A stretch of DNA of 64,000 bases from Bryobacterales bacterium (GTDB taxonomy: Bacteria > Acidobacteriota > Terriglobia > Bryobacterales > UBA6623), in assembly GCA_963422375.2 (NCBI GenBank), contig OY729427.2, positions 928,001-992,000 of the forward strand, written 5' to 3'. Both the position numbers and the translations under genes were made by a program. Each line of letters opens with the position of its first letter. Position 1 is the stretch's first letter. This document shows, piece by piece, positions 13,934 to 55,674 of this stretch. Below the pieces are notes generated by a model, which had not been told where the DNA came from, did no database searches, and saw nothing but the letters and a program-made list of their open reading frames with translations.

Positions 13934-14863
13934 GTGGCCGAGCTGCGCACGGACCTTTGCGGCATCGGACTGCGGAATCCCGTCATCGCCGCCAGCGGAA
14001 CATTCGGCTACGGCCTGGAGTTCGAGACGCAGGCGGACCCGGGGCGCCTAGGGGCGATCGCGGTCAAGGGCATCTCGCGCGAGCCGCTCGAAGGAAACCC
14101 GGCCCCGCGCCTGGCCGAGACCGCCTCGGGCATGCTGAATTCGGTCGGGTTGCAGAACGTCGGGGTCCGGGCGTTCGCGCGGGACAAGCTGCCACGGCTC
14201 GCCCGGCTCGGCGTCCCGGTCATCGCCAACGTATTCGGGTTCCGCATCGAGGATTACGTCGAAGTCCTGCGGGTTCTCGAGGACCAAGACGGCCTGGCGG
14301 CCTACGAGCTCAACGTCTCCTGCCCCAACACGCATCGCGGCGGACTCGAGTTCGGGTCCAGCGCCGCGGCATTGCACGAAGCCGTCGCGGCGGCGAGGTC
14401 GGCCGTCCGGCGGCGGCCGCTGCTGGTCAAGCTCTCTCCGAACGTCGCGGACATCGCGGACATGGCCAGAGCAGCGGTCGCGGCGGGCGCGGACGGGCTC
14501 AGCCTGATCAACACCCTGCGCGGCCTCGCCGTCGACGCCCGGTCGGGGCGGCCCCTGCTCGGCACCGGCTACGGCGGCCTGTCGGGCCCGGCGATCAAGC
14601 CCGTCGCGCTGTACATGGTGCATAGGGTCGCGCAAGCCGTCGACGTGCCGGTCGTGGGCATGGGCGGGGCGGCAACGGCGGACGACGTTGCGGAGTTCAT
14701 CCTGTGCGGAGCCGCAGCGGTACAAGTCGGCACCGCCAGCTTCTGGGATCCGGGTCGGACAGCGGCGCTGGCCGGGGAACTCGGTGCGTTCCTCGACGGC
14801 GCGGGCTGGACGAGCGTCGACGAGATGCGCGGGGCGCTCGAGTTCCCGCGCCGCGATGCCTAG
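13934..14863 (+). CDS. pyrD: Dihydroorotate dehydrogenase (family 1)
   Basis: ASGTFG, GMLNSVGLQN, ELNVSCPN, KLSPN, GGLSGPAIKP. Confidence 0.96.
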   Translation: MAELRTDLCGIGLRNPVIAASGTFGYGLEFETQADPGRLGAIAVKGISREPLEGNPAPRLAETASGMLNSVGLQNVGVRAFARDKLPRLARLGVPVIANVFGFRIEDYVEVLRVLEDQDGLAAYELNVSCPNTHRGGLEFGSSAAALHEAVAAARSAVRRRPLLVKLSPNVADIADMARAAVAAGADGLSLINTLRGLAVDARSGRPLLGTGYGGLSGPAIKPVALYMVHRVAQAVDVPVVGMGGAATADDVAEFILCGAAAVQVGTASFWDPGRTAALAGELGAFLDGAGWTSVDEMRGALEFPRRDA

Positions 14864-16697
14864 CGCCGGCAGGTCGCGCTTCTCGCCGCCGTTGCGCCCC
14901 GCCTGGCAACCTGCTACGGTCTCTCTAGAGCTCGACGTCACCTACAGCCTCTCGCGTCGCACGGCGGTCGCGAGTAACGGGGTTGGATATGGCCTGCAGG
15001 CTCATGGCTCTTTGCCTCTTGGCAGCGCTCGGTGTCTGTCAAGCCCAGCTGGCCGAAGCGGGCGACAGCGCTTCGCTGCGAGGTCCGGCGGCGGAGCAGC
15101 CCGGTCCAGCAAGTGCTGGCGCGGGGCGACGCAGGGGCGGCCGGCTCGCTCTCCGAGCTCCAGGCCGGCGAGATCGAGAAGCTCCTGGAGCAGCTCGCCG
15201 AAGGACTCGTCTCCGGCACTCCGATCTCGCGCGACAGCGTCGCCCCGGACTTTCGCGGCACGCCGCTCGGCCCGGCAGCTGAGGAGCTAGCCCGTTCGCA
15301 GGACGGGCTGGAGACGTTCCGCGGCACGCCGCCTACCGATCCGTCGATCACGCCAAGTTCAAGATCGTGAGCATCGAGCCGCGGGGCGAGAACGCCGCGC
15401 GCACGACCTTGCGTTTCCAGCTGTCGGGCGCGACGAACGGGGGGCATCGCGAGCAGCTCGACGCCGAGTGGCGCTGCGACTGGCGGAAATCGCCCTTGGG
15501 CCAACGGCAGCTGGCGGGACTGGCGGCCGGCCCGAGCGAGCGAAGCCGCGCAACGGTCGCGGTATTCAACGATGTCTCGGAGTCGGCCTTCGGACATAAC
15601 GCTTCCTACCAGCGGCAGCTGAAATTCGGCACGCAAGTCTGGCGGACCAGAATGGACGCCGCCTCGGGCATGGACGTCTACGGCCAGCGGGGACTGGCGG
15701 TCGGGGACTTCAACGGGGACGGGCTCGAGGACTTCTACCTCACGCAGCCGGGGGGACTACCGAACCGGCTGTTCCGCAACCTAGGCCACGGAAGCTTCGC
15801 CGACTTCAGCGCCGAGGCCGGCGTCGACGCCCTGGACGGCTCCTCGGCCGCGTTCTTCGCGGACATCGACAACAACGGGACGCAAGACCTGATCGTCATC
15901 CTTTCCGTCGGCCATCCGATCCTGTTCCTGAACGACGGACGCGGCACGTTCCGGCTGTCGCCGGACGGATTTCCCCCGGGCGTCAAGCCGGGGGCGGTCG
16001 GCGGCTGCATCGGAGACTACGATCGCGACGGATTCCTGGATCTGTACGTGACCGCGTATCTGTGGCCGAACGCGGCCTCGCAGCTCCCGCGCCCCTACTA
16101 CGACGCCACGAACGGCCCCCCGAACGTTCTCTACCGCAATCCGGGGACCGGCGCGTTCGAGAACGCGACGGCCGACGCGGGGCTGGAGGAGAACAACGAC
16201 CGGTTCAGCCACGCATGCGCCTGGGGCGATTACGACCAGGACGGATGGCCCGATCTCTTCGTGGCCAACGACTTCGGCCGCAAGAACGTCTATCGCAACC
16301 GAGGCGACGGAGGCTTCCGGGACATCGCCGCGGAGGCAGGCATCGAGGATCCCGGAGCCGGCATGAGCGTCGCGCTGGGCGACTACGACGGCGACGGGAG
16401 GGAGGACGTCTATTTCGGCAACATGTGGTCGTCGGCGGGGCGCCGGGTCACGGCGCAGCGGGACTTCAAGAGCGCCAGCCCCGGGGCCCCACGCACATTT
16501 ACCGCCGGCATGCGCGCGGCAACTCCCTGTACCGGAACGAGCTCCGCCGCTTCGCCGACGTAACTCTCGAGTCCGGCGTGGAACTGGGCCGCTGGGCGTG
16601 GTGCTCGGACTTCGTGGACTTCGACAACGACGGCCGTCTCGACATCTACGTCGTCAACGGCTTCGTCACCGGGACCGAGGGACAGGCCCCCGATCTT

Positions 16698-16729
16698 TGA
16701 AGCTTCTTCTGGCGGCAGGTCGTGTCGTC
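16698..16729 (+). promoter_or_regulatory. In-frame UGA plus putative bacterial SECIS hairpin
   Basis: TGA 16698-16700; stem GGCGGCA (16711-16717) / TGTCGTC (16723-16729); loop GGTCG starting 17 nt after UGA. Confidence 0.6.
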
Positions 16730-17714
16730 CTCCCCCGAGGATCGCGCCCGCTCCTCGCGATACGAGCGCAGCTGGGCGCTGCTCTACAGGCTGATCCGCC
16801 TCAGCGGGCACGAGCGGAACGTGCTGTACTGGAATCGCGGCGACGGCACCTTCGCGGACCTGTCGGCGGTCGCCGGCCTGGACTTCCCCGAGGACGGCCG
16901 CGCGTTCGTCACGTTCGATTTCGACCGCGACGGAGATCTCGACATCCTCCTGAACAATCGGAACTCCCCGCAGTTGCGGCTGCTGCGCAACGACTTCGCG
17001 ACATCCCATTCCTCCGTGGCCGTCCGGCTCGAGGGCACCGAGAGCAACCGGGACGGCATCGGCGCGAGGCCGGTGCTCGAGACCGCCTCCGGGCGGCGCC
17101 TCGCGAGATCCGTGCGCAGCGGCTCGGGCTTCCGGTCGCAGCCCTCCCGGACGGCGCATTTCGGCCTGGGCAGCGAAGAAGAGGTCGGCGAGCTCACGAT
17201 TCACTGGCCGTCGGGGCGGCGGGACCGCCACCGGGGGGTCCCGGCCGGACACCTCGTGTCCCTGAAGGAAGGGAGGCGCGACGTAGCCGCGGTTCCGTTC
17301 GAGGCCCCGACCGCGACCGCGCCGCCCGCCCGCCGGAGCCCGCACGACCGCCGAGCCGAACGGGCGTCTGGCTGACGGAGGCCACCCCGGCCCCGCAGCT
17401 GCGCGGACGGACGCTGGACGGCGAGCGGATTCGCCCGGAAGCTTACCGCGGCCGGCGGCTGCTGCTCAATTTCTGGGCGACCTGGTGCGCGCCGTGCAAC
17501 ACCGAGCTGGCGGACTTCGCCCAGCACCGCGCCGATTTCGAACGCGCCTCGCTGCTGCCGTTGCTAGTGTCGGTCGACGAGCCGGGCGAGGTCGAGACCG
17601 TGGGCCGCTACGCGCGAGAGAAGCAGCTGCCGTTCCCGGTCCTGCTTCCCGACAAGGGCACCGTGACCGCGTTCGACCTGCTGGTCCGCCATGTTCTCGA
17701 CCAGTCGGCCGAGC

Positions 17715-17752
17715 TGGCGGTCCCCAGCACGTTTGGCGATCCCCAGCACGTT
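17715..17752 (+). repeat. 19-bp tandem duplication causing a frameshift
   Basis: TGGCGGTCCCCAGCACGTT followed by TGGCGATCCCCAGCACGTT (1 mismatch). Confidence 0.9.
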
Positions 17753-19186
17753 TCTCTTCGACGAGAGGGGCAGGATCGTGTGGCTCTACCTCGGCCTGAC
17801 GCCCGCGCAGCGGATTCTGGCCGACGCGGAGAGCTGGCCGGCCGGCGGCTCCGGGTTGCTCGAGCGGGACCTGCCCTTTCCCGGACGGGCCTACGTAACC
17901 CGATTCGAGCGGAACTGGGTCCAGCTCGCGGACGCGTACGCCGCGGCCGGCCTGCGGGACGAGGCGGTGGCGACCCTCGAGCACGCCGTCGAAGCCCACC
18001 CTCAGCACGCGGCCAGCCTCGACCGGCTCGGGAGCCTGTACGCCGAGCAGGGCCGCTGGCAGGAAGCGCGGGAGAGGCACAGGGCGGCGGTCGAACTGGG
18101 GTTGCCGGGCGGCGCAGCGCAGATTCACCTCGCCACCGCGCTGGCGGAGCTGGGAAGGCTGTCCGAGGCTCGGGCAGCCGCCACGGAGGCGCTCGCACAG
18201 TTTCCGGAGGACGCGGACACGCTGCGCGTCTGGGGCGCGGTCGCCTCGCGCCAAGGGACTTCGAGAGCGCCTTGCCCGCACTGGTCGCCGCGCGCCGGAT
18301 CGATCCCGACAACGCCGCGGTCCACTACAACCTCGGCTGGCTGCATGTGCAGGCGGGACGGACCCGCGAGGCGACCGCATCCCTGCTGAAGGCGGTCGAG
18401 CTGGAGCCCGGGCATGCCAACGCCCTGCACGATCTCGGCATCCTGCACGCCCGAGCCGGGGCGTGGGAGGAGGCCGCGCAATCGCTCCGCGAGGCCATCG
18501 CGTCGGAGCCGGGCCTCGCGGAAGCGCACTACAGCCTTGGCATGGTCCATGCGCGGCAGGGAGACTTCAAGCGAGCCGAGGAGGCCCTGCGGGAGACCTT
18601 GAAGATCCGCGGTGAATACGCCCAAGCCCTCACCGACCTAGGGGCCGTCTACATCGCGACGCGCCGGTACCGCGAGTCCCTAGCCCTGCTGGAGCGAGCC
18701 CGCCGGGCCCAGCCCCAACTCGGCCAGTCCTACTTGAACGCCGCCAAGGCCCATCTAGCCTTGGGAGACGTAACGGGCGCGGTCGCCAGCTTGGACGCCC
18801 TCCTCAGCGTGCATCCCGGCGATCCGAGCGCGCTCGCCCTCAAGGAGCGCTTGCAGGCGCCATGACCGCGCGCGCAGGCGGCGTCCCCGGTCCGAACGCG
18901 GGGCGCTCTAGGTCCCATCGAGGATCCGGTCACCGCAATCCAGGCGAACGCGGGCTCCTCTTCAGCCAACCGTTTCGGCCCGCTCGGAGGGTCCCTCGAC
19001 GAGAGTCCGCAAGACGTCATCCGGCACCGCGCATGCAGCGCGAACGCCGCGTCTCGCATCCTCCTCAACGGTTGGGAAGCGCGTTGGCCTACCGCCGGTC
19101 TCCTTGCGACCGCTCCTTGAATGACCCGCGGATCGGGCTGCGGTAAGCCGTCGCGACGGAACGTTCCCGCGGGTATACTTCGAACG

Positions 19187-20781
19187 ATGCCAGAGGGGCG
19201 CCGCGCACTGTTCGCGCTGTGGCTGCTCGCGTCTGCCCACGGGTCCCCGCGCGATCCGACCGTCCTCCCTCCGCCGCCGTCCGCGCACGCCGCTCCGGGC
19301 GTCGCGTTCGAAGATGTCACTTCGTCCGCCGGCCTGGGCTCGTTCGAACACCGCGCCGGATCTCCCGACAAGCCATACCTGCCCGAAACCATCGGCTCGG
19401 GCGTAGCGCTTTTCGACTACGACAACGACGGCTGGCTGGACGCGTACCTGCTCAGCTCCCTGTCCGAAGAGGCGCGCCGGGGAATCGCCCGGCCTAACCC
19501 GTCCGTGCTCTTTCGCAACAATCGCGACGGCACGTTCACGGACGTCACCGCGCAGGCCGGCGTCGCGAACGAGCGCTGGGGGGTCGGCACCTGCGCCGGG
19601 GACGTCAACAACGATGGCTGGACGGATCTCTTCGTCACCAATTTCGGCAAGAGCCGGCTCTATCTGAACGGCGGCGACGGAACTTTCGAGGACACCGCGG
19701 CGGAAGCCGGGGTTCAGGTCGACGCCTGGTCGACGGGATGCGCCTTCGGCGATTACGACGCGGACGGCCTGCTTGACCTCTACGTGGCTAGCTACGTCGA
19801 CTTCCGCTGGGATGATCCCCCGCCCCCGGGGGCTCCGCCGGGCAGCTGCCAGCGGAGGGTCGCGCGGCAGCGCATCCGACCGGCGGCGAGCCTGCGACCG
19901 GCGCCGCCTACAGCCCCGGCATGCCGGTCTGCGTGTACTTCGGGGTGCCCGTCGCGTGCGGTCCCAAGGGCCTGCCCCCGCAAGCCGACACGCTTTTTCG
20001 CAACGAAGGCGACGGCCGATTCCGCGACGTCACCCGGAAATCGCGCCTGAGTGAGGCACGCCCCAGTTACGGACTGGCAGTCGCGTGGGTCGATCCCGAC
20101 GACGACGGCCATCCCGACATCGTCGTGGCCAACGACTCGATGCCGAACTTCCTGCACCGCAACCTAGGAGACGGCACCTTCGAGGAGATCGGCGTGCTCA
20201 GCGGCCTAGGCACGAACGGGGACGGCCACGACCAAGCCTACATGGGCGTCGCCGTCGGGGACTACTCCCGCGACGGCCGCAGCGACTTCTTCTTCACCAC
20301 CTTCTCCGGTGACAACTACACGCTGCATCGCAACAACGGCGACCTAGACTTCAGCGACGTCACGCTGCAATCCGGGCTGCTGGCGGCGACGCTTCCGTTC
20401 CTCGGCTGGGGCACCACGTTCCTCGACTACGACAACGACGGCTGGCTCGACATCCTCGCGGCCAACGGCCATATCTTCCCCCAGGCGGACCCCGCGACGT
20501 GGGGGACGTCGTACGGGCAGAGGACCCTGCTGTTCCGCAACCTGCGCGACGGCAGGTTCGCTGACGTCTCGGGAAGCGTCGGGGCCGGCTTCGCGCGGCC
20601 CAGGAATTCCAGGGGAGCCGCGGTCGGGGATCTGTTCAACGACGGCAGCGTCGACGTGGTCATAAACAACCTGGACGGCCGCCCCACCGTGCTCCTGGCC
20701 AGGATCTACCTCGACGGGCGCAGCCTGGAGCTTGCGGAGGCCACGGTGCAGCGCGCGATCGAAGTCCAACCGCATAGCTAG
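19187..20781 (+). pseudogene. CRTAC1/FG-GAP family protein, frameshifted and C-terminally truncated
   Basis: YLPETIGSGVALFDYDNDG, GDVNNDG, VACGPKGL, LDYDNDGWLD; frame change between about 19840 and 19915; ASPIC domain missing after NNLDGRPTVLL. Confidence 0.85.
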
Positions 20782-22637
20782 TGCTTGTGACAGAACGCGC
20801 AAGCCCTTAGTTTCCGGGCGGTTGCAGCAGGTCCGTGGGACGAAGATCGGGGCGATCCGGGCCGGCTTGCGCGCTTCCGGCGGTCAAGCGACAATCTTCG
20901 TTGAGGAACCGCCCGTGAGGACCGTTCAGGAGATCCAGCTCACCCTTGGCCGGACTGCAATCGAGGATATCGATCTCGACGTCCGTTCCCGCGACGATAT
21001 CCCGGCCATCTTGCTAGGAATACAATTCATCTATCGCACCGAGGAGTTGCGGGACAGGGTTTTCGGACTGCTCGAGAGCCGTATCCTCGGCCTCGGCGAG
21101 AGTAGCGGGAACGGCGGGAACGGCGAGAACGGAAGCGATCCTTCCGCAGGCGAGTCCGGCAGGATCAACCCTGCCGTCGGTCGTCCCGGCATGCAGCTGT
21201 GGAACATTCTCGTCCCGGGCCTGCTCAAGCAGGGATTGAATTGCGACTGCGACCGCGTGACGGAGCTGGCGAACAAGCACGCGGACGTCCGGCGCTTCCT
21301 CGGTCTGAACGCGACGCTCGACGAGCAGGTGTTCAGCTACCGGACAGTCAACCGGAATCCGAAGCTTCTCACGCCCGACCTCCTCGCGGAAATCAATCGG
21401 CTGGCCGTGCGGGAAGGGCACGCGCTGGCGGGGTGCGAGGAAGGCGATCCGCTGAAGGCGCGGCGCGACTCGTTCGCGGTGGAAACGAACGTGCATTGCC
21501 CGACGGACGTGAGTCTCCTATGGGACGCCTTGCGCTGCCTGATTCGCTCTATTGCGCCGCTGTGCAAGGGGCGCGGTATCGCGGTCTGGCGGCAGAGCGC
21601 GCGGCTGCCGAAGACGCTGAAGCAGGAATTCAACCGGGTGCGGCAGGCGAAGAGGAGGCAAGGCAACCCGGAGAGGGTGCGGTCGTACCTGGAGGCGGCC
21701 CTGGAGATAGCGCGGCGGGCGGAGGGTGCGCTGGCGGCCCTGGCGCGGGCCGGGGAAGACGAGGGAACCTTGGGAGCGGCAAGGAGTGACCTCGGGTACG
21801 TGCAGCTCCTGGCGGACCCGGTGGAGCGGCGCGTGCTGCGGGGGGAGAAGATCCCGCACGAGGGGAAAGTGTTCTCGATCTTCGAGGAACACACGCGCTG
21901 GTGCGTGAAAGGAAAAGCGGGGGTTCCGGTGGAGCCGGGCGTGCCGGTATGCATCGTGGAAAGCGAGCACCGATTCGTGATGAATCACGAAGTGACGTGG
22001 AAGGGGAGCGACGCGGACGTGGCGGTGGGAATCGTCGAGGGGGCGCAGGGGCTGTACGCGGGGCTGTCGAGCTGCAGCTTCGACCAGGGCTTTCACAGCC
22101 CGGCGAACCGGACGCGCTTGGCGGAACTGCTATCGTGCCACGCGATGCCGCGGAAGGGGAGGCTGTCGAAGGCGGCGAAGGAGACGGAAGGCGCGCCCGA
22201 ATTCGCGGCAGCGAGGCAGGCGCACCCGGCCGTGGAGTCCGCGATCAACAATCTCGAGTGCCGCGGTCCGGACAGGGTGACGGACCGGGGAGCGGAGGGA
22301 TTCGAGCGGATGATCGGGCTGGCGGTCCTGGCGGCGAACGTGCATCGAGTGGGCCGGATCGTGCGCGACAGAGAGAGGGAGCGTCTCAAGACGGAACCCT
22401 TGCCGCTGGCTGCATAGGCAGTCGGCAGCGATCTGAATTGCCCTGAATTGAAACCTTGAAGAGACGAGGTTCAGGAAAAGTTTACAACTAGAACAGAACT
22501 AACTGTATCCTCACAATGAAAATGGAATATGAGGCAATGAGTTCGGGTAATTGGCGCAGCCTGTTTCTTCCATAGCTATCATTTGGTGGGGATCTATTAG
22601 CTAGAATCCCCAAAATATCAGGGTTTTGTCACAAGCA
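20782..22637 (+). mobile_element. Complete insertion sequence (IS5-like/ISNCY DDE type), about 1856 bp
   Basis: Terminal inverted repeats TGCTTGTGACAGAAC (20782-20796) and GTTTTGTCACAAGCA (22623-22637), 14/15 match; CTAG on both flanks (20778-20781, 22638-22641). Confidence 0.9.
20915..22417 (+). CDS. Transposase
   Basis: SRDDIPAILLG, GRPGM, DSFAVETNVH.PTD, KVFSIFEEHT.W..KGKAG, SFDQGFHS, HPAVESAINNLE. Confidence 0.9.
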   Translation: MRTVQEIQLTLGRTAIEDIDLDVRSRDDIPAILLGIQFIYRTEELRDRVFGLLESRILGLGESSGNGGNGENGSDPSAGESGRINPAVGRPGMQLWNILVPGLLKQGLNCDCDRVTELANKHADVRRFLGLNATLDEQVFSYRTVNRNPKLLTPDLLAEINRLAVREGHALAGCEEGDPLKARRDSFAVETNVHCPTDVSLLWDALRCLIRSIAPLCKGRGIAVWRQSARLPKTLKQEFNRVRQAKRRQGNPERVRSYLEAALEIARRAEGALAALARAGEDEGTLGAARSDLGYVQLLADPVERRVLRGEKIPHEGKVFSIFEEHTRWCVKGKAGVPVEPGVPVCIVESEHRFVMNHEVTWKGSDADVAVGIVEGAQGLYAGLSSCSFDQGFHSPANRTRLAELLSCHAMPRKGRLSKAAKETEGAPEFAAARQAHPAVESAINNLECRGPDRVTDRGAEGFERMIGLAVLAANVHRVGRIVRDRERERLKTEPLPLAA

Positions 22638-23003
22638 CTAGTTTGCAACACCATCGGGCCGATTGCAAGATCGGCATGTGCCCCTGGAACCGGCAGGCAC
22701 GACATCTTGCGATGTTACGGTGTGGCCCCATATTCCCGTCGCGCTGGCCGCGCCAAGCAAGGGGCTCTCTGGCCGGCGAGCCTACCCTCGACAGCTCCGC
22801 GGCCCACACCGGCCGGCCCTCGTCACGGCGGCGATCCAATCGGGCAGCACCGTCCGCGCGGGAGGCTGGGTCGGCCTGCTCGCGCATCCGGCACATCGGG
22901 TGCCCGACGCGATGTCCGCGACCGGCGACGGTCCGCAGGGAGCCGGCAAGCCGTTCCGCAACTGCGGCGCCTCGGCGCCGAGGCGCCAGCCGCGGGGAGC
23001 GCA

Positions 23004-48171: not shown

Positions 48172-50028
48172 CTAGCGACCGCCCCGAATTGCTCGAATTC
48201 CTACAGGCCGACGGAGCTCGCCCGAGCCTTCCCTGAGGATCAGGACACCGTTCTCTTCGACGTCTAGAAACCTCTCAAGCCTCCCGCTGGGCCAAGCAAC
48301 TTCGACGCTCTCGACGGCACTGCGTGGACCGAGGCCGAAGTGCAGACGTGGGTCGTGCGCGGCTTGGTAGCTGCCCCCTCCCGTGCGCTCGGCCACTTGG
48401 ACGAATCCCTCGGACGACACCGTAACCCTCGCCCCGACACCGTCTCGGTTGGACTGAACGCCGACGAGTAGCACCTGAAGCCAGTTGTTGCCGTTCCCGC
48501 CATCGTTGCGGAGCAGCTGCGGCGCCTGACCATTGTTGGCGACCGCCACGTCGAAGTCGCCGTCGTTGTCGTAGTCCGCGAACGCCGCGGCCCTGCTGAC
48601 ACGCGGAAGGCCCACAGCGGGCCCCAGAGCGTCGCCCGGGGCCTCGAACAATGCTTCCACGTTTCGCAAGACTAGCTTGGGTTCTTCGTACCGCGTCCCT
48701 TCGTGAAACAGCTCGATGTTGTCCAGAACATGGCCGTTCGCCACGAACAGATCCCGCCAGCCGTCGTTGTCGTAGTCGACGAAACGCGTGCCGAACCCGC
48801 TGAGCTTGAAAGTCTTGTAGCCGATGCCGTCCTGGAACGTCGCGTCGAAGAATGTACCGTCCCCGAGATTGCGGTAGAGGCGGTCGAACTCAAAGTCCAA
48901 GTGAGTCACGTAGAGATCGAGCCAGCCGTCCCCGTTGTAGTCCGCCGCGTCCACGCCCATGCCAGCTTCGGCCTCGCCGTTCTCGCCTAGCGCCACGCCA
49001 GCGACGAATGCCACCTCCTCGAAGGTGCCGTTGCCTAGATTTCGGAACAGGAAGTTTGGCATAGAGTCGTTGGCGATGAAGACGTCCTGCCAGCCGTCCC
49101 CGTCGTAGTCGAAGCAGACGACTCCCAAGCTGTTGCCGGTATAGGCCGCAAGGCCCGAAGGCTCGGACGCATCCTCGAACTGTCCGTTCCCCAAGTTCCG
49201 ATAGAGGGTTGGCGCCTGCCCTCGGTACTTGTTGGGGTGGCAGTAGGAGCGGTACCCGGGCCGTCGCTCGCCGCAATGCAAGTTCCCTTCAGGGGACCAG
49301 TCCAAGTAATTGGCGATCGCGAGGTCGAGCAGTCCGTCAAGGTCGTAATCGAACCACGCTGCGCTCGTCCCCCACTTGCCCTGATTGGATGTACCAGCCC
49401 TCGCTGTGACGTCTCGGAATCTCCCATCCCCTTCGTTCCGGAGTAGGACAGAACGCCCGTAGCCGCTTACGGCCAAGTCCGTGTCCCCGTCGTTGTCGAA
49501 GTCACCGGCGGCTAGGCCCATCGCGAAGAGGTCTTCCAGCCCGACTCCGGTTCCGGGCCGGGCCAACTCGAATCTCCCATCCCCGGTCGCTCGATACAGG
49601 GCGCCGCCTAGCGGGCTGGGCGGATCGAACTTGTTTGTAGCCGCACTGTTGGCCAGATACAGATCAAGGTTGCCGTCCCCGTCATAGTCGAGCCACGCGG
49701 CCCCGCCCCCCATGGTCTCAATCAGGTACTTGTGGGCGGTCGCGGCGTTCTCGTGAACGAAGTCGATCCCTGATTCCCGCGTTACGTCAACGAACTCGAC
49801 TGTCACCCGCGCCAGGGCGTCTTCGCAATTCGCGGGAAGCGTAGCGTGCCATGGGGACGCGCCAGCGAGCAGCAGCCGGACGGCGACCTGCCACCCTCGA
49901 TCAAACAATGGCACCGGGCTCCCCGTCGCGAGCAGGTTCAAGCAGGCGTGCGCTGCACCGTAGGCTCGATGTGCATGTCCGCGCCGAGTCTGGCGTATCG
50001 GTGGGACGGCCGCTGTCTGATTCCGCAT
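48172..50028 (-). CDS. CRTAC1 family protein (FG-GAP repeats + ASPIC/UnbV), intact; true start probably further downstream
   Basis: KYLIETMGGG, DYDGDG/DFDNDG repeats, YCHP, NRDGVGARV, GGSYQA..LHFGLG..WPSG. Confidence 0.92.
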   Translation of the reverse strand: MRNQTAAVPPIRQTRRGHAHRAYGAAHACLNLLATGSPVPLFDRGWQVAVRLLLAGASPWHATLPANCEDALARVTVEFVDVTRESGIDFVHENAATAHKYLIETMGGGAAWLDYDGDGNLDLYLANSAATNKFDPPSPLGGALYRATGDGRFELARPGTGVGLEDLFAMGLAAGDFDNDGDTDLAVSGYGRSVLLRNEGDGRFRDVTARAGTSNQGKWGTSAAWFDYDLDGLLDLAIANYLDWSPEGNLHCGERRPGYRSYCHPNKYRGQAPTLYRNLGNGQFEDASEPSGLAAYTGNSLGVVCFDYDGDGWQDVFIANDSMPNFLFRNLGNGTFEEVAFVAGVALGENGEAEAGMGVDAADYNGDGWLDLYVTHLDFEFDRLYRNLGDGTFFDATFQDGIGYKTFKLSGFGTRFVDYDNDGWRDLFVANGHVLDNIELFHEGTRYEEPKLVLRNVEALFEAPGDALGPAVGLPRVSRAAAFADYDNDGDFDVAVANNGQAPQLLRNDGGNGNNWLQVLLVGVQSNRDGVGARVTVSSEGFVQVAERTGGGSYQAAHDPRLHFGLGPRSAVESVEVAWPSGRLERFLDVEENGVLILREGSGELRRPVGIRAIRGGR

Positions 50029-50575
50029 CTCGAAGTGCCGTAGATGACTGGAATCAGCCCGTCGAACCCATCCAGTCGTTCAGTCTGTCGCGCCTGGCGG
50101 AGTGGCCGCGCCGGACAATACCAGCCGAGGCTCGGGCAGGCCGACAAGGTCGGGAGCAGCCGGGGGGGCTGGTGACGACAAGCAGACCGCGGGTGCCTCT
50201 GCCCGCATTCCTTTCAAGAGTCGGTCCCGATCTCTCGTGTCCGATCGCGTCGGGAATTCCGAGTCTTTGAACGGCTGCAAGGCAAGATCTCACTACAGAA
50301 AGGCCCCACGACAATCGCTGTCGATCAGTACGACGCCTCGCCTACGTCGGATGCCCTCCTCGCGAAGACCTCGAGGCGGTTTGGGGCGATGGCGCACGCT
50401 GAAGGGTGCGTGGTACCAATCGAAGCGTTCATTCTTGGTGGACGTAGTCCGTCCAATCGAGGTTCCGCGGACTGCCTGCAATTCCCACCAGATGCCGCCC
50501 GAGAACCAAGTCGGCTGTCACCGAGGGGCCAGCTAACTAGACCCCCGGCTTAAGCCTAGTGCATGAACAACGGCG

Positions 50576-53500
50576 TCAGAAGATCACCTTGACTCCGAAC
50601 TGAATATTTCGTGCGCCGAAAGTGCTGGTGACTCGCCCGAAGTTGCCGCTCTGCAGGCTGCCGTTCACCGAGCCTAGGTTGACGTGGTTGAAGACGTTGA
50701 AAAACTCCGCACGCAGGTCGATCCGACCACCCTCGCCGAGTAGCGGCACGGGTATCTGCCGCAGCAGGTTGAGGTCCGCGTTGGCGAACCCCGGGTTCGT
50801 GAAGGTGTTGCGTCCCAGCGTGCCCGGACGGACGGTCTGCGGCTTCGGGAAGTCCGCCGCGGTGAACAGGCCATTGATGTAGTCCTGCCTGGAGGCTCCG
50901 TCGATCGAGCTTCCGAAAGCCGGGGTGTCCGGGTAATCGTTGTTGAATCCGTCGGCGTTGAAGTCGCAGCCGTTGTTGCCGACCATGTTGCCGCCGTCGT
51001 CGAAAACCGGATTGAAGGGCAGCCCGCAGTTGACCGTGAACGGTGACCCGCTCTGCAGGATCGAGGTCAGTCCGAACTGCCATCCGCCGAGGACCGCCTT
51101 GCCCGGGCCGTTCCGGAATGGCGACGGAATCTCGAAGATCAGGCTGGTCGCGAACTTCTGCCGCACGTCGAAGCGCGAGCGCCCGCGGTTCAGGCGCATG
51201 TTCGTCAGCTCGACTAGGTGCTCACCCGAGAAGCTGCTGCCGGTGTCGATCGCCTTCCCGAACGTGTAGGCCCCTTGGAATAGCAAGCCCCGCGCGAAGC
51301 GCTTCTTGAGGCTGAGGTTGCCTCCGTGGTAGTACGACTTGCCGTTGTTCTGCCCGTACGTGATGCTGCCGAAACTGGGGTTCAGGCGGTCCAGCCGCCC
51401 GTCCAGCAGATCGCCCGCGAAGCGGTTGACCTCGTAGTTCTGGTACAGTTTCGATCCCTGAGAGCCCACGTAGTTGGCTTCGACCGCCCAGTCGTTGCCC
51501 AAGGCGTACTGGATGCCGAAGAACCAGTTGATGGCGTATTGATTCTTCAGGTCCGGCTCCCAGATCTGGATCGCCGCCGGCACGCCGACCAGCCCGCCGC
51601 GCTCGTCCAAGCCGATCTGAAGATCCGGCGGGCGCGGGAACTGCCACGGCGACTCCAGGGTGCTGCTTAGCCCGTAAACCGGCTGCGCGTCGGTCTGCTT
51701 GCTGACGTCCGCCACCGCGAAGATCGGCAGGCTCGTGCAGCAGTCTCGGTAGAACTGGCCGCCGGGACGGTCGTAGAACATCCCCGCCCCGCTGCGGATG
51801 GACATCTTGCCCCGTCCGGTCGGGTCCCACGCAATGCCGATACGCGGCGCGACGTTGTTGCTGTCGGTCGAGGCAAGAGGCGGCCCCTGCCTCACGCCGA
51901 CGTCGGCGATCCGCTCCGTGAAGTTGCTGCCGCCGCGGAAGTTGGCGCCGACGAAGATAGAGTCCAGGTCGGTCGGAATCGGGAATGCCTCCCAGCGCAG
52001 GCCCCAGCTGACTGTCAGGTTCGGACGGACCTTCCAGTCGTCGTTGAAAAACACGCCGAAGTTCGTGAAGCGCGGGCGGAAGTCGAAGCCGCGAGCGTCG
52101 CCCGTGGCCGGGTCGAATCCGATGTTGCCGTGCGAGAAGGGGTCGTCCATGGCGAAATCCCAGATGTTGTTGAAGCCGTAGTTCGGGCGCTCCCAGACCG
52201 CGGCGAAAAGGGCGCCCGCGCCGGGGCAGCCGCTGTCGCAGTTGAAGTTCCCGCCGAACTTAAAGGAGTGCGACCCCTTGTTCCACGTGCTCACGTTGCG
52301 CCACTGCTGGTTGTTCTGGATGAAGACGGCGTCGGAGAAGCCCTGGCCGTAGGACGCGATCCCGGGCACGTTGATGGCGGGGATCTCTCCGCGCCCGATG
52401 GGCGCGTCGCCTTCGGCGTGCTGCCAGGACCACGAAAGCTCGTTGATCACGTTCGTCGAGATAATCCTCGTCCAGTTGAGGTTCGCGAAGGCCGTCCACT
52501 GCTCCTGCATCTTGGTGAACGCAGGGTAGACCGCCGGGCTGCCGAACAGGACCTGCTGGTTGGTGGTTCGCGCCACGCTGCCGTAGATCCGGTCCTTGCT
52601 CTCGTTGAAGTTGTGATCCACGCGGGTCGTCCATTGGATGCCGTCCCTAGGCAGCGTCTGCGCGAAGGACCCGCGCTCGGTCACAGCGAAGTTGCAGGGC
52701 ATCATGCCGATGGGCGTCTCGATGGGCGAGCTGCCCGCGCAGTCCGATCCCATCAGGGTCCCTGCCGTCTGCGCAACGCTCTTGTTGGTCAGGATATCCG
52801 GGAACTCGTTCATGACCATGCTGCTGATGTTGTCGGGGAAGCGCTCGCGCACCAGCCCGGCAAACTCCCGGCTGACGACGGTGTTGCTGAATCCGGCCCC
52901 GACGCCGGAGCGCAGGATGTCCATCGAAGCGAACGCGAAAGTGCGATTCCTGACGATCGGGGCGCCTAGGCTCCAGTTGGCCTCGTTGCGGCGGAATATC
53001 GGCACCTTCGGCTGGAAGAGGTTGCGCGCCTGCATCTTGTTGTTCGTGTGGTACCAGCCGAGCGTGCCGTGGTACTCGTTCGTGCCCGACTTGGTCACCA
53101 CGTTGACGAGGACCGAAGAATTGCGCCCGTACTCCGCCGAGAAGTTGTTCAGCGAGACGCGGAGTTCCTGGACGGAATCGGCGTTCGGATTGTGGTTGAC
53201 CACGCCGCCGCGCGGGCTGGCGTTGACCGACGCCCCGTCCACGTTGAAGCTGTTGGATTCCGCGCGCTGGCCGTTGCCGCTGAGGTTGACGCCGTACTCG
53301 GCGGAAAAGATGTCCCCAGTGGCTTGCGCGTAGGCCTGCCCGCCGCCGGACGGCAGGCCGACGACGCCCGGGGTCAGGACGACCAGCGTCATGAAGTTGC
53401 GCCCGACCAACGGCAGGTCCGCGACCTCCATCTCCTCGATCTGGCCGGAGACCTGCGCCTCGCCCGTCTCGATGAGCGGCGCTTCGGACGTCACACTCAC

Positions 53501-53890
53501 GGTTTCGGTGGTCTGGCCGACCTCGAGCTGGATGTTCAGTGTCGTGGTCTGGGCGACCTCGAGCGTCACGCGCTCCTGGACGAAGGTCTGGAAGCCCTCC
53601 GCACTCGCCGTGACCCTGTAGGTGCTGGCCGCCAGGGCGGTCCCGCGGTACCGCCCGACACTCGAGGTCTCAAGCGTGCGGGTCGTCCCAGTGGCGACAT
53701 CCTCAATGATGACCTGAACCGCGGGAATCACAGCGTCGGTCGGGTCGCTGATCGTTCCCTCGAGAATGCTGCTGAACTGCGCCTGCAGGCCTAGCGAGCC
53801 GACCAGCAGTAGGACCAGTGCACGGAGCATCCGCCCGGCGCGACGCGTACGGCGAGAAGCAGGACGCCCTGCCCGTGATCGATGATTCAT
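50576..53890 (-). CDS. TonB-dependent receptor with carboxypeptidase regulatory-like N-terminal domain
   Basis: GTISDPTDAVIP, LPLVGRNF, FSAEYGR, TKSGTN, GLRWE, APRIGIAWD, C-terminal RNIQFGVKVIF. Confidence 0.95.
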   Translation of the reverse strand: MNHRSRAGRPASRRTRRAGRMLRALVLLLVGSLGLQAQFSSILEGTISDPTDAVIPAVQVIIEDVATGTTRTLETSSVGRYRGTALAASTYRVTASAEGFQTFVQERVTLEVAQTTTLNIQLEVGQTTETVSVTSEAPLIETGEAQVSGQIEEMEVADLPLVGRNFMTLVVLTPGVVGLPSGGGQAYAQATGDIFSAEYGVNLSGNGQRAESNSFNVDGASVNASPRGGVVNHNPNADSVQELRVSLNNFSAEYGRNSSVLVNVVTKSGTNEYHGTLGWYHTNNKMQARNLFQPKVPIFRRNEANWSLGAPIVRNRTFAFASMDILRSGVGAGFSNTVVSREFAGLVRERFPDNISSMVMNEFPDILTNKSVAQTAGTLMGSDCAGSSPIETPIGMMPCNFAVTERGSFAQTLPRDGIQWTTRVDHNFNESKDRIYGSVARTTNQQVLFGSPAVYPAFTKMQEQWTAFANLNWTRIISTNVINELSWSWQHAEGDAPIGRGEIPAINVPGIASYGQGFSDAVFIQNNQQWRNVSTWNKGSHSFKFGGNFNCDSGCPGAGALFAAVWERPNYGFNNIWDFAMDDPFSHGNIGFDPATGDARGFDFRPRFTNFGVFFNDDWKVRPNLTVSWGLRWEAFPIPTDLDSIFVGANFRGGSNFTERIADVGVRQGPPLASTDSNNVAPRIGIAWDPTGRGKMSIRSGAGMFYDRPGGQFYRDCCTSLPIFAVADVSKQTDAQPVYGLSSTLESPWQFPRPPDLQIGLDERGGLVGVPAAIQIWEPDLKNQYAINWFFGIQYALGNDWAVEANYVGSQGSKLYQNYEVNRFAGDLLDGRLDRLNPSFGSITYGQNNGKSYYHGGNLSLKKRFARGLLFQGAYTFGKAIDTGSSFSGEHLVELTNMRLNRGRSRFDVRQKFATSLIFEIPSPFRNGPGKAVLGGWQFGLTSILQSGSPFTVNCGLPFNPVFDDGGNMVGNNGCDFNADGFNNDYPDTPAFGSSIDGASRQDYINGLFTAADFPKPQTVRPGTLGRNTFTNPGFANADLNLLRQIPVPLLGEGGRIDLRAEFFNVFNHVNLGSVNGSLQSGNFGRVTSTFGARNIQFGVKVIF

Positions 53891-54259
53891 TAGCTCTCTC
53901 CCTCTATCCTGGCGCTGCGGACGGGGCAGCAGTGCAACCCCGGCCGGAGCGCGACGTCGAAGCACCGCCGGCGAATGCCGCCAAGCGGCGGACGGCCAGC
54001 CCTCGAGCCGCCAACATAGTAGAACACTCCGGCTGGCGGATAGCTACTCCGGATGACGCCGAATGGCGAATTCAGGGCTCACCACGAGGCCTGCCATTCA
54101 GTCCGACCGATTTTTCCGTGCCCGCGAGCCAGCTCTTTGAGGGTGGAGCCGCGAGGCACCTGCGGACGGGAGTTGCGGAGGAGGTGCAGCGTGCTTTGAC
54201 CATCTCCGACCGGTGGGTCACGACGTCGGTCGGACCGGAGCATTGCAGCCCGCGACACG

Positions 54260-54545
54260 CCTCCGGCGTGACGCGGTGCAGGAGTGCCGTCAGCTTCTAC
54301 CGCGGCTCCCTGTTCACGGGCTGCCGTATCCGTTCCGCGCCGCTTGGCATCGATCCGCGGATCTGCATTCGGCCCGGGTCGGCTCCTCACGTCTTTACCC
54401 TTAGTCCCGGCCCTTCACTCCGGCGGCTCCGCCGGGACTCGCGCCTCTTGGTTCACCGCCTTCGTTCCTACTACGCCCGGGTCTGGCTACGGCGCCCCGT
54501 GCATCCGCGGCTCGGGCGCACGGCCCTCCCGCGGCGGCCCCGGCG
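54260..54545 (-). mobile_element. Degenerate group II intron fragment (domain II-IV RNA plus RT N-terminus)
   Basis: Minus strand ..ATGCACGGG..GTAGTAGGAACGAAGGCGGTGAAC..GCGGAGCCGCCGGAGTGAAGGGCCGGGACTAAGGG, then ATG 54350 MPSGAERIRQPVNREPR*KLTALLHRVTPE. Confidence 0.75.
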
Positions 54546-55029
54546 CTCGACGTACGTGCGTGCCTTGAGGTCTCGGACACCTCGTGGCCGCCGCCCAGCT
54601 CGAGCGTGCCGAGGGAGTGTTCGAAGGAGTCCCCGAGGATTTCTTCTTCGCGCTCAGTCGCCTCGTTCCCGGACTGCGCGGCCTCGCGAAACTCGACAGT
54701 GACGGAGGGGAGCCGCAGGCCTTCGAGAGCGGCGGTCTGCGCATCGAATAGTGGACCCGTTACGAGATCGAGAACCAATCTGTGACACCCGACACTCTGC
54801 CGCAACAGCAAGACAACACCGCAAATTGGGTCGGACTTTCGTCGTCCTAGGCGGTGGGGCGCCACGAGACAGTCCCCGTCGAGGTAATCGAGAATCCCAA
54901 CCTGCAGAGGGAACTCGCTAAGAGCCCCGCAGCGGCCTAGGTCCCGAGCAGAGTGCCCTGCCAGCCGCCGGCAGTCCCGATGCGACTGCTGGCCCGACGG
55001 GGTGATTGAAGTCGGGACGCCGCTCGGCA

Positions 55030-55674
55030 CCGGCCGTTGGCACGTACAAGCAGGTGGCGTGCCAGTACACGGTCACGGCGGAGGGCGGAGAAAAAGGGCC
55101 GGGCGGCCGAGGTGCGTTGGGAGCGCGACCAGATCCAGGGCACGAGCCTGCTGCGCACCAGCCGAGTCGAGTGAGACAACGCCCGGTTCGTGCCCGAGTA
55201 CTGCCGTCTGGCGGACATCGAGGCGACACTCCGATCCCTCAAGGAGGGAGCTGGGCCGGCGGGTGGCGCGGCATCTGTTCCTGACCGTGCTGGCTTACCA
55301 CTTAGTCCATGCCGTGCGGTACGACCTCCGCGCGCACGGCGTGCGGAGCGGCTGGAGGTCGATCCGAGAGCGTTCGCGGACCTGGGTGCGGCTGACGACG
55401 CCGATACGAACGGCGGACGGCAAGGCGTGGGGCCAGCGCCAGGCCGTGGACCCGAACAACGAGCAGCAGGCTCGCATCGCCGCCTCTGCGGGGGTGAACT
55501 TCCGGCGGCACCGTGGGAGGGTGCCGGTACTCGCCTCGGAACTCCAAGCCGACGGAGGCAGCACGGTGGCCCAAGACAAGAAAATGTAGTGACCGCAAAT
55601 CCGCTTCGCGGAATTCCAACTCAATGAAATCAACGACTTTCAGGTGTGCCCCCCGAAAAACCTCGGAACTTGGG
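55030..55674 (+). mobile_element. IS1634-family transposase remnant (3' part and right end)
   Basis: LLRTS..*..LADIEATLRSLK, frameshift, ELG/RRVARHLFLTVLAYHLVH..W.SIR; ends CCTCGGAACTTGGG. Confidence 0.75.

Follow-up and report, generated by a model that had tools for sequence, protein, structure and literature searches.

In Escherichia coli fdhF, the in-frame UGA that encodes selenocysteine (Sec) is directly followed by a SECIS hairpin (TGA CAC GGC CCA TCG GTT GCA GGT CTG CAC), in which a bulged U plays a role. A cysteine homologue at the position of the UGA, available for nearly all selenoproteins, is a search heuristic and lies outside the definition of these proteins. Fusion of an enzyme with a thioredoxin domain is known from the cell envelope, as in Neisseria PilB, an MsrA/B with such a domain, and the integrin/CRTAC1-like β-propeller is, to our knowledge, a fold without a redox catalyst. 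In the bSECIS model, as set out in section 5 of PMC13188914, the loop counts 3–9 nt and the stem 4–16 bp, a G stands at the first or second position of the loop, the hairpin lies 16–37 nt from the UGA and its energy is −7.5 kcal/mol or lower; section 6 of the same source gives Sec/Cys pairing as the basis of SECIS-independent searches.

Here we describe an in-frame TGA at positions 16698–16700 (+ strand) of a stretch of 64,000 nucleotides (hereafter, the window; G000:C1:928001–992000) from the genome of a Bryobacterales bacterium (G000; 6.0 Mb, 96% complete), which an earlier note made from the sequence alone had proposed as a candidate Sec codon. Judging from its conservation in homologues, we consider, with a probability of about 0.9, that this TGA is the Sec codon of a widespread family of predicted exported proteins and that the window copy of the gene is a pseudogene; the stop codon seen in the window is almost certainly an inherited Sec codon, and we infer that Sec itself is inserted in intact members of the family. 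The frame around the codon reads NGFVTGTEGQAPDL*SFFWRQVVSS (the asterisk marking the UGA) and, past the UGA (NGFVTGTEGQAPDL*SFFWRQVVSSSPEDR), stays open for 224 further codons, up to 17375, so that the uninterrupted passage into SFFWRQVVSS described in the earlier note is borne out. The open reading frame that the note placed at 16062–16700 is the true reading from about 16489 on, whereas before a frameshift near 16488 the protein uses another frame.

The window copy, all on the + strand, can be followed from end to end as (i) a start codon and probable signal peptide (MACRLMALCLLAALGVCQAQ, 14989–15048), which in translation align to the N-terminus of the intact paralogue P0003, the signal peptide being recognized by eye; (ii) an NTF2/SnoaL-like N-terminal domain (15140–15550; tblastn mapping and AF2 model of the paralogue), broken by a 61-bp deletion near 15327, with a frameshift near 15090 just upstream; (iii) an FG-GAP/CRTAC1-like β-propeller (15556–16998; Pfam FG-GAP_3, AF2 and fold match), with the 1-bp frameshift near 16488 and an additional in-frame deletion of 12 bp at 16797; (iv) within this propeller, the TGA (D-L-U-S-F-F-W-R-Q-V-V), which, from conservation and the model, would specify the first residue of a helix in a propeller insert; (v) an ASPIC/UnbV domain (17055–17255; Pfam PF07593, E = 3.6e-16); (vi) a TlpA/ResA-like thioredoxin domain (17387–17734; PF00578, fold matches to ResA and TlpA) with the motif WATWCAPC (CxxC at 17486–17497), preceded by a linker frameshift at 17330–17350 and interrupted near 17714 by a duplication of 19 bp; and (vii) a TPR array ending in a stop codon (17913–18865; Pfam TPR matches), with a 1-bp frameshift near 18254. 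The frameshifts thus number six, in keeping with the earlier count of about six, and three of them lie upstream of the UGA; the lesions were called by comparing the window with its paralogue on contig C2 (77% identical DNA) and with three orthologues. The closest orthologues of the window gene come from Bryobacterales and Terriglobia.

The lesions are the same in contigs from two runs belonging to two studies. Three overlapping pieces from run X3, which comes from the study whose runs matched best and from which the window sequence may itself derive, cover 15000–18900 with zero differences and zero gaps, and contigs from run X5, of a different study, are identical to the window wherever they cover it; in the raw-read run X11, depth was almost nil. 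Translation from the start at 14989 loses the frame long before the UGA, which makes the window copy a pseudogene: no intact frame leads from its start codon past the UGA, as it would in a functional selenoprotein gene, and since the frameshifts 5' of the UGA are genuine, this copy is unable to yield a selenoprotein. The window gene duplicates the intact C2 paralogue and is dead, the codon and the SECIS being kept in it as relics; the proposal of Sec recoding is supported for the family and fails for the window copy itself. The decayed duplicate is one of a pair, the second member being an ordinary CRTAC1-family gene (19121–20718, +), frameshifted and cut short, that matches residues 18–537 of its 634-residue C2 counterpart. 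A 1.86-kb element (20779–22640) sits at the truncation point of this downstream gene; it is bounded by terminal inverted repeats (CTAGTGCTTGTGACA...TGTCACAAGCACTAG), has about 15 near-full-length copies in the genome (91–97% identity) plus partial ones, and six of its ORFs tested gave no Pfam match. A second duplicated region of the window (50877–53582 and 49135–55674) is repeated on C2 (1769447–1778830) with 83–91% identity.

Four paralogues with the motif D-L-x-SFFWRQVV are found in G000, three with TGA and one with TGC at x. The two other TGA paralogues are intact, with 622 + 676 and 693 + 720 open codons around the site, and extend from stop to stop over G000:C2:3297150–3301091 (−) and G000:C1:578738–582637 (+). 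A metagenome scan in which TGA, TGC or TGT was allowed returned at least 122 loci, 118 of which fit the motif (116 TGA and two TGC among the matches listed); the two TGC rows (L080 and L086) are short frames and not homologues and were dropped, and L044, L078, L091 and L103, which do not match the motif, were excluded. When any codon was allowed at the site, matches came from 62 of the 401 genomes of the host's own phylum: TGA was present in 46 of them, 14 had nothing but sense codons, and two were spurious (Val, dropped). In a Planctomycetota sample, taken from the phylum to which a Planctomycetales record belongs, 17 of 301 genomes matched, with TGA in 35 of 35 matches. We also dropped L155/G344 (a TGA row whose frames span 2 and 31 codons, from a genome lacking selA) and, as doubtful homologues, G035 and L170/G247, G247 being kept among the 14 sense-only genomes. 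Single genomes carry up to five copies. Tabulating the codon in homologues, as the note had advised, gave 127 distinct TGA loci, with TGA conserved in intact copies. The note had also stated that relatives are often annotated as split at DL*, and all of the best 120 short matches, in a search limited to proteins of 209–665 residues, end in DL; they are named VCBS-repeat, FG-GAP or hypothetical proteins and come, where named, from Planctomycetota and Verrucomicrobiota, and one record from Nitrospirota falls in a cluster represented by a protein that likewise ends in DL. As far as sequences tell, the family is characterized by an in-frame UGA with a continuing frame, conserved across organisms.

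The hairpin that the note had placed after the UGA is present as claimed, a 7-bp stem (GGCGGCA/TGTCGTC, 16711–16717/16723–16729) enclosing a GGTCG loop 17 nt past the codon, in which G and U occupy positions 22 and 23 counted from the U of the UGA. We assign it (16711–16729, +) as a bacterial SECIS element on the basis of folding, covariation and the consensus model: with a 5-nt loop that opens with G, a 7-bp stem, a distance of 17 nt and an energy of −8.7 kcal/mol, it conforms to the bSECIS geometry given in section 5 of PMC13188914. The conserved stem comprises the inner 6 bp (16712–16717/16723–16728), the outermost pair being kept in 43 of 123 copies. Considered alone, the window hairpin is not beyond chance (z = −0.84 versus shuffles; z range −0.23 to −0.84), and longer windows around it fold otherwise; that it stands above chance follows from its conservation, its covariation and its rarity, since the stem in the 6-bp register with a GU loop is found at 11 of the 109,897 TGA triplets of the genome, three of which belong to the window gene and its two paralogues. 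Against the assignment, the hairpin overlaps conserved codons. A search of window positions 14800–19200 against Rfam gave no match up to E = 1.

Covariation, for which the note had proposed a test, was indeed found as compensatory change, mainly at pair 18–28, which joins the third base of an Arg codon to the first base of a Ser, Ala, Pro or Thr codon. In the 123 distinct TGA copies this pair is GU (46), AU (42), CG (19), GC (9), UA (2) or UG (1) and is unpaired in four, all four Watson–Crick types being represented. The covariation score is 0.186 versus 0.090 in shuffled alignments (none of 500 shuffles as high), with at most 0.085 in slid registers. At this pair a synonymous site follows an amino-acid change, so protein constraint offers no explanation. 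A tree-based test of the base pair (four supported pairs, none discordant, p ~0.5) had no power. The main 5-bp stem is formed by 114 of 127 TGA copies versus none of 15 sense-codon copies (G247 is absent from this control), and an energy of −7.5 kcal/mol or lower is reached by 120 of 127 versus 4 of 15; several TGA copies that lack the main stem fold a good hairpin in a shifted register, and 7 of the 15 sense copies form some stem of at least 5 bp in another register.

The machinery for Sec insertion is at hand: tRNA-Sec, selA, selB and selD are all present in G000, the three protein genes above cut-off, and at least one Sec gene occurs in each of the 63 TGA-bearing genomes of the two phylum samples, the co-occurrence that the note had asked about. 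selA was found in 58 of these 63 genomes (41 of 46 in the own phylum, 17 of 17 in the Planctomycetota sample); the five without full selA all have selB, four of them have tRNA-Sec, and the fifth has a partial selA. The background is high (296 of 401 and 221 of 301 genomes with selA, respectively, i.e. ~74%; 8 of the 14 sense-only genomes), the own-phylum tally taking in one unpublished genome, G024, and selD being tested in G000 only; because of this background and of the non-independence of related genomes, the co-occurrence fits Sec and does not prove it. Other in-frame TGAs in G000 lie in one FdhA-like and two AhpC/TSA genes and are followed by hairpins of the same kind. The FdhA-like gene (G000:C2:2608538–2609809, −) has its Sec codon in CNRT-U-HAP, with an fdhF-like SECIS, and the AhpC/TSA genes (G000:C1:502546–502917, −, and G000:C2:884289–884684, +), with their hairpins, have TGA in the contexts TGG-U and ADW-U-PFC and are probably known Prx-type selenoproteins. 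Note that selD (locus L011, G000:C1:1372933–1376847) occupies the C-terminal end of a frame of 779 codons, where it is probably fused to an N-terminal domain; its motif, RCRGCASK, contains Cys instead of Sec.

The intact paralogue P0003 counts 1312 residues as translated, with U at 592, and comprises, in order, a likely signal peptide, an NTF2-like domain, the FG-GAP propeller, the ASPIC/UnbV domain, the TlpA/ResA-like domain and TPRs. Members of the family are predicted exported proteins of about 950–1350 residues, often with TPRs; some stop after the thioredoxin domain. The NTF2-like domain of the paralogue was modelled with an AF2 pLDDT of 86, and its best VIA match (Z 13.8, rmsd 2.8, 133 residues aligned) is to NTF2-like folds. 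In a 779-residue AF2 model spanning the UGA (pLDDT 94, pTM 0.94), the halves before and after the codon make up one domain, and the site is placed at the start of helix 381–389, inside the propeller insert. The best fold match is murine CRTAC1 (9etn_A, E = 5e-30, TM 0.71 by target); the FG-GAP propeller followed by PF07593 above cut-off places the protein in the CRTAC1/ASPIC-UnbV superfamily. The WCxxC motif, the cis-Pro loop and the thioredoxin fold are those of a TlpA/ResA-like redoxin, a predicted disulfide reductase. The gene neighbourhood (30 ORFs of seven loci and 22 of the window) revealed no conserved operon beyond another CRTAC1 gene, and neighbouring genes name no substrate. At one locus, the second gene away from the Sec gene encodes a glutaredoxin–thioredoxin reductase fusion (L174:5313–6512), which is absent from the six other loci scanned. 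Scattered over the G000 contigs are over 25 CRTAC1-like genes of the ordinary kind, without the Sec insert.

Relatives with a sense codon at the site seldom have Cys there, which weakens the usual Sec/Cys test: TGA is shared by intact homologues, as the note had expected, whereas the sense forms, mostly Met, Glu, Ser, Asn, Gly, Ala or Asp, provide no clean Sec/Cys pair. The best 120 matches of the Cys paralogue make up a clade whose members mostly carry twin-arginine-like leaders; the site is occupied by Met in 34, Cys in 28, Asn in 17, Gly in 15, Ser in 9, Ala in 8, Glu in 6 and Asp and Thr in one each, one match lacking the motif. Of the 150 representatives listed at 50% identity, roughly half are unrelated repeat-rich proteins; in 50 that belong to the family, the residue is Glu in 15, Ser in 12, Asn and Asp in 5 each, Ala in 4, Met in 3, Gln in 2, and Cys, Gly, Leu and Arg once each; the alignment adds two further Cys forms, i.e. 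three of about 52 representatives. Cys forms, a minority of the sense forms, include besides these 28 matches the Cys paralogue on C2, P0144, P0171 and P0174. The Cys paralogue (L031:7258–10803, G000:C2:1411258–1414803) belongs to the clade with twin-arginine-like leaders, lacks the CxxC and has a broken hairpin, with G-G at pair 18–28; this clade is possibly a non-redox offshoot exported in the folded state.

The presence of Sec goes with that of the downstream CxxC, which is found in 79 of 80 TGA copies versus 5 of 153 sense forms (4 of the 124 without Cys at the site, 1 of the 29 with it), 47 of the 127 TGA copies and 14 sense proteins being left out as too short to include the thioredoxin domain; in TGA copies that are long enough, it sits 236–304 residues after the Sec site. 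A tree was built from 135 propeller regions and rooted at its midpoint; TGA forms make up its deepest rows, and it implies 10 changes in Sec state and 8 in CxxC state. Where a sense form stands alone inside a TGA clade, it often retains the CxxC, whereas of the two large sense clades one has the motif in 1 of 38 members and the other in 1 of 17. With this rooting, the pattern suggests that Sec was lost first and that the CxxC decayed later. An independent-pair test of the Sec/CxxC association (six pairs, on average 3.3 concordant and none discordant, p 0.125–0.5) had no power. Docking of the propeller against the thioredoxin domain in the natural Cys form P0144 gave a score of 0.77, the best control scoring 0.00; the mark was attained by 116 of the 157 solved pairs and by 2 of the 215 mismatched ones, figures that are rough because an own alignment was used. 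At least 85% of contacts were common to the docking runs, and the partner pLDDT was at least 84; the docked domains belong to one chain, and the fold search has them in separate entries only. At the interface lie residues 680 and 682 of the insert together with the loop that precedes the cis-Pro; the P0144 interface list includes neither residue 644, the Cys/Sec site, nor the CxxC (917–920), so that a direct relay between them would need movement.

From these data we tentatively favour, as somewhat short of an even bet, a redox relay in which Sec reacts and the CxxC re-reduces it. Decoding of the TGA by SelB and Sec-tRNA, through the hairpin within the reading frame, belongs to the Sec reading itself, which we regard as very probable; gene callers cut the proteins of the family in two. 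In the relay, outside the cytoplasm, the selenolate would be the reactive centre on the propeller and would be oxidised by some ligand or partner whose disulfide, sulfoxide or peroxide-type group serves as substrate; the fused CxxC domain would then re-reduce Sec, itself being fed by a DsbD/CcdA-type membrane reductant. Lineages without Sec would mostly have shed the CxxC later and would probably be non-redox binders. We place behind this relay, as a less probable reading that nevertheless deserves attention, one in which Sec is inserted and serves to bind a metal or small ligand or to sense redox state, the CxxC being devoted to another exported protein. The missing contacts of residue 644 and of the CxxC in the docked complex would suit it, as would the frequent Met, Glu, Asp and Asn, possible ligating residues, of the sense forms and the CxxC kept in those few non-Cys forms; it is less easily reconciled with a CxxC near-universal with Sec and rare without it, and with the docking of the thioredoxin domain onto the Sec-bearing insert.

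Two readings that accept the UGA and deny Sec are each very improbable. If the UGA were a true stop that naturally splits the product into two polypeptides, with the hairpin aiding translational coupling, the storage of the halves as separate proteins in databases would be explained, and TGA is an ordinary stop in G000, the commonest ending of long open frames (1098 of 2175, counted over six frames; codon usage across the genome did not serve as background, since shadow frames were mixed into it). Yet neither TAA nor TAG was found at the site when any codon was allowed in the 401 own-phylum and 301 Planctomycetota genomes, the stop being only ever TGA; it falls in frame, at the same residue every time, within a single propeller, the hairpin agrees with the bSECIS model as given in PMC13188914, and unsplit sense-codon relatives exist. 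Readthrough of the UGA as another residue, be it Trp, Gly or, with a special tRNA, Cys, for which the many residues tolerated in sense relatives would leave room, we regard as just as hard to sustain, given that TGA is an ordinary stop in this genome, that its sole tRNA with a TCA anticodon is tRNA-Sec, that Trp is absent from the site among the sense forms tabulated and that the hairpin is of the same type as the SECIS of the genome's FdhA. Finally, a nonsense mutation or assembly error confined to the decayed copy, which its six frameshifts might have suggested, is refuted by the TGA of the intact paralogues and of the 127 distinct loci and by independent-run contigs identical to the window letter for letter.

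The earlier note took CRTAC1/ASPIC not to be a classical selenoprotein family, and the sources agree: Table 1 of PMC13188914, part of a 2026 catalogue of 119 families, has no FG-GAP, VCBS, ASPIC or CRTAC1 entry, and the accessible parts of BSepDB (PMC13326102), of deep-Sep (PMC12013277, text and four supplements) and of the Haft and Gwadz preprint (10.1101/2022.07.06.499078) contain no match to the family. The Sec region is covered by no family in NCBIfam 20.0, none of whose selenoprotein models scores above cut-off with the intact paralogue. Full-text literature searches retrieved no paper on the family and no Sec form of CRTAC1/ASPIC-UnbV; the unvalidated candidates or supplements of Deng et al. 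2026 could include it. The rarity of Cys in relatives is perhaps why catalogue methods missed the family. The recoding mechanism is known; what is new, as far as could be checked, is the family, the location of Sec in a propeller insert, the lack of a counterpart with Cys and the connection with a CxxC far from the Sec. Recognition of the family, which databases carry as two truncated proteins, adds a large group to the bacterial selenoproteome (46 of 401 own-phylum and 17 of 301 Planctomycetota genomes) with an unusual pattern, Sec lying in a β-propeller insert instead of a thioredoxin motif, and the combination of Sec with a distant CxxC offers a directly testable function for a CRTAC1-like protein. 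It is conceivable, if rather doubtful, that these proteins represent a new class of exported, self-recycling selenoenzymes built on an integrin/CRTAC1-like propeller, in which Sec is ancestral and not usefully replaced by Cys, and from which Sec-less lineages drop the CxxC to become non-catalytic binders. Through such a class the large bacterial CRTAC1/ASPIC family could for the first time be approached biochemically, and searches based on Sec/Cys pairs would turn out to overlook a whole category of selenoproteins.

Compared with the closest known systems, the family shares with fdhF an in-frame UGA with a hairpin directly 3' of it, the core GCAGGUC and a GU loop. The match of the core noticed earlier is real, and in fdhF it lies one base farther from the UGA, with GU at +23/+24 instead of +22/+23; in addition, the stem described here has no bulged U, and the family protein is unrelated to the fdhF product and predicted exported, with relatives that seldom have Cys at the site. 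With CRTAC1/ASPIC-UnbV proteins, represented by the murine structure (PDB 9etn), it has in common the FG-GAP propeller and the ASPIC/UnbV domain, to which it adds the NTF2-like domain, the helical Sec insert, the fused CxxC domain and TPRs; the ordinary CRTAC1 paralogues in G000 do not have the DL-x-SFFWRQ insert. The proposed recycling of a catalytic chalcogen residue by a fused TlpA-like domain would recall PilB, from which the family differs in having no Msr domain. Lastly, like NF041054 (ResA-like, WAxxUGC) and a UGC-containing TlpA family, it pairs Sec with a TlpA fold; the NF041054 model is weakly similar to the thioredoxin domain of the intact paralogue and to the stretch that follows, at 40.5 bits, far below its cut-off of 300. 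In NF041054, Sec belongs to the thioredoxin motif itself, whereas in the family described here this motif is a plain CxxC (WATWCAPC) and Sec lies 236–304 residues upstream, in the propeller.
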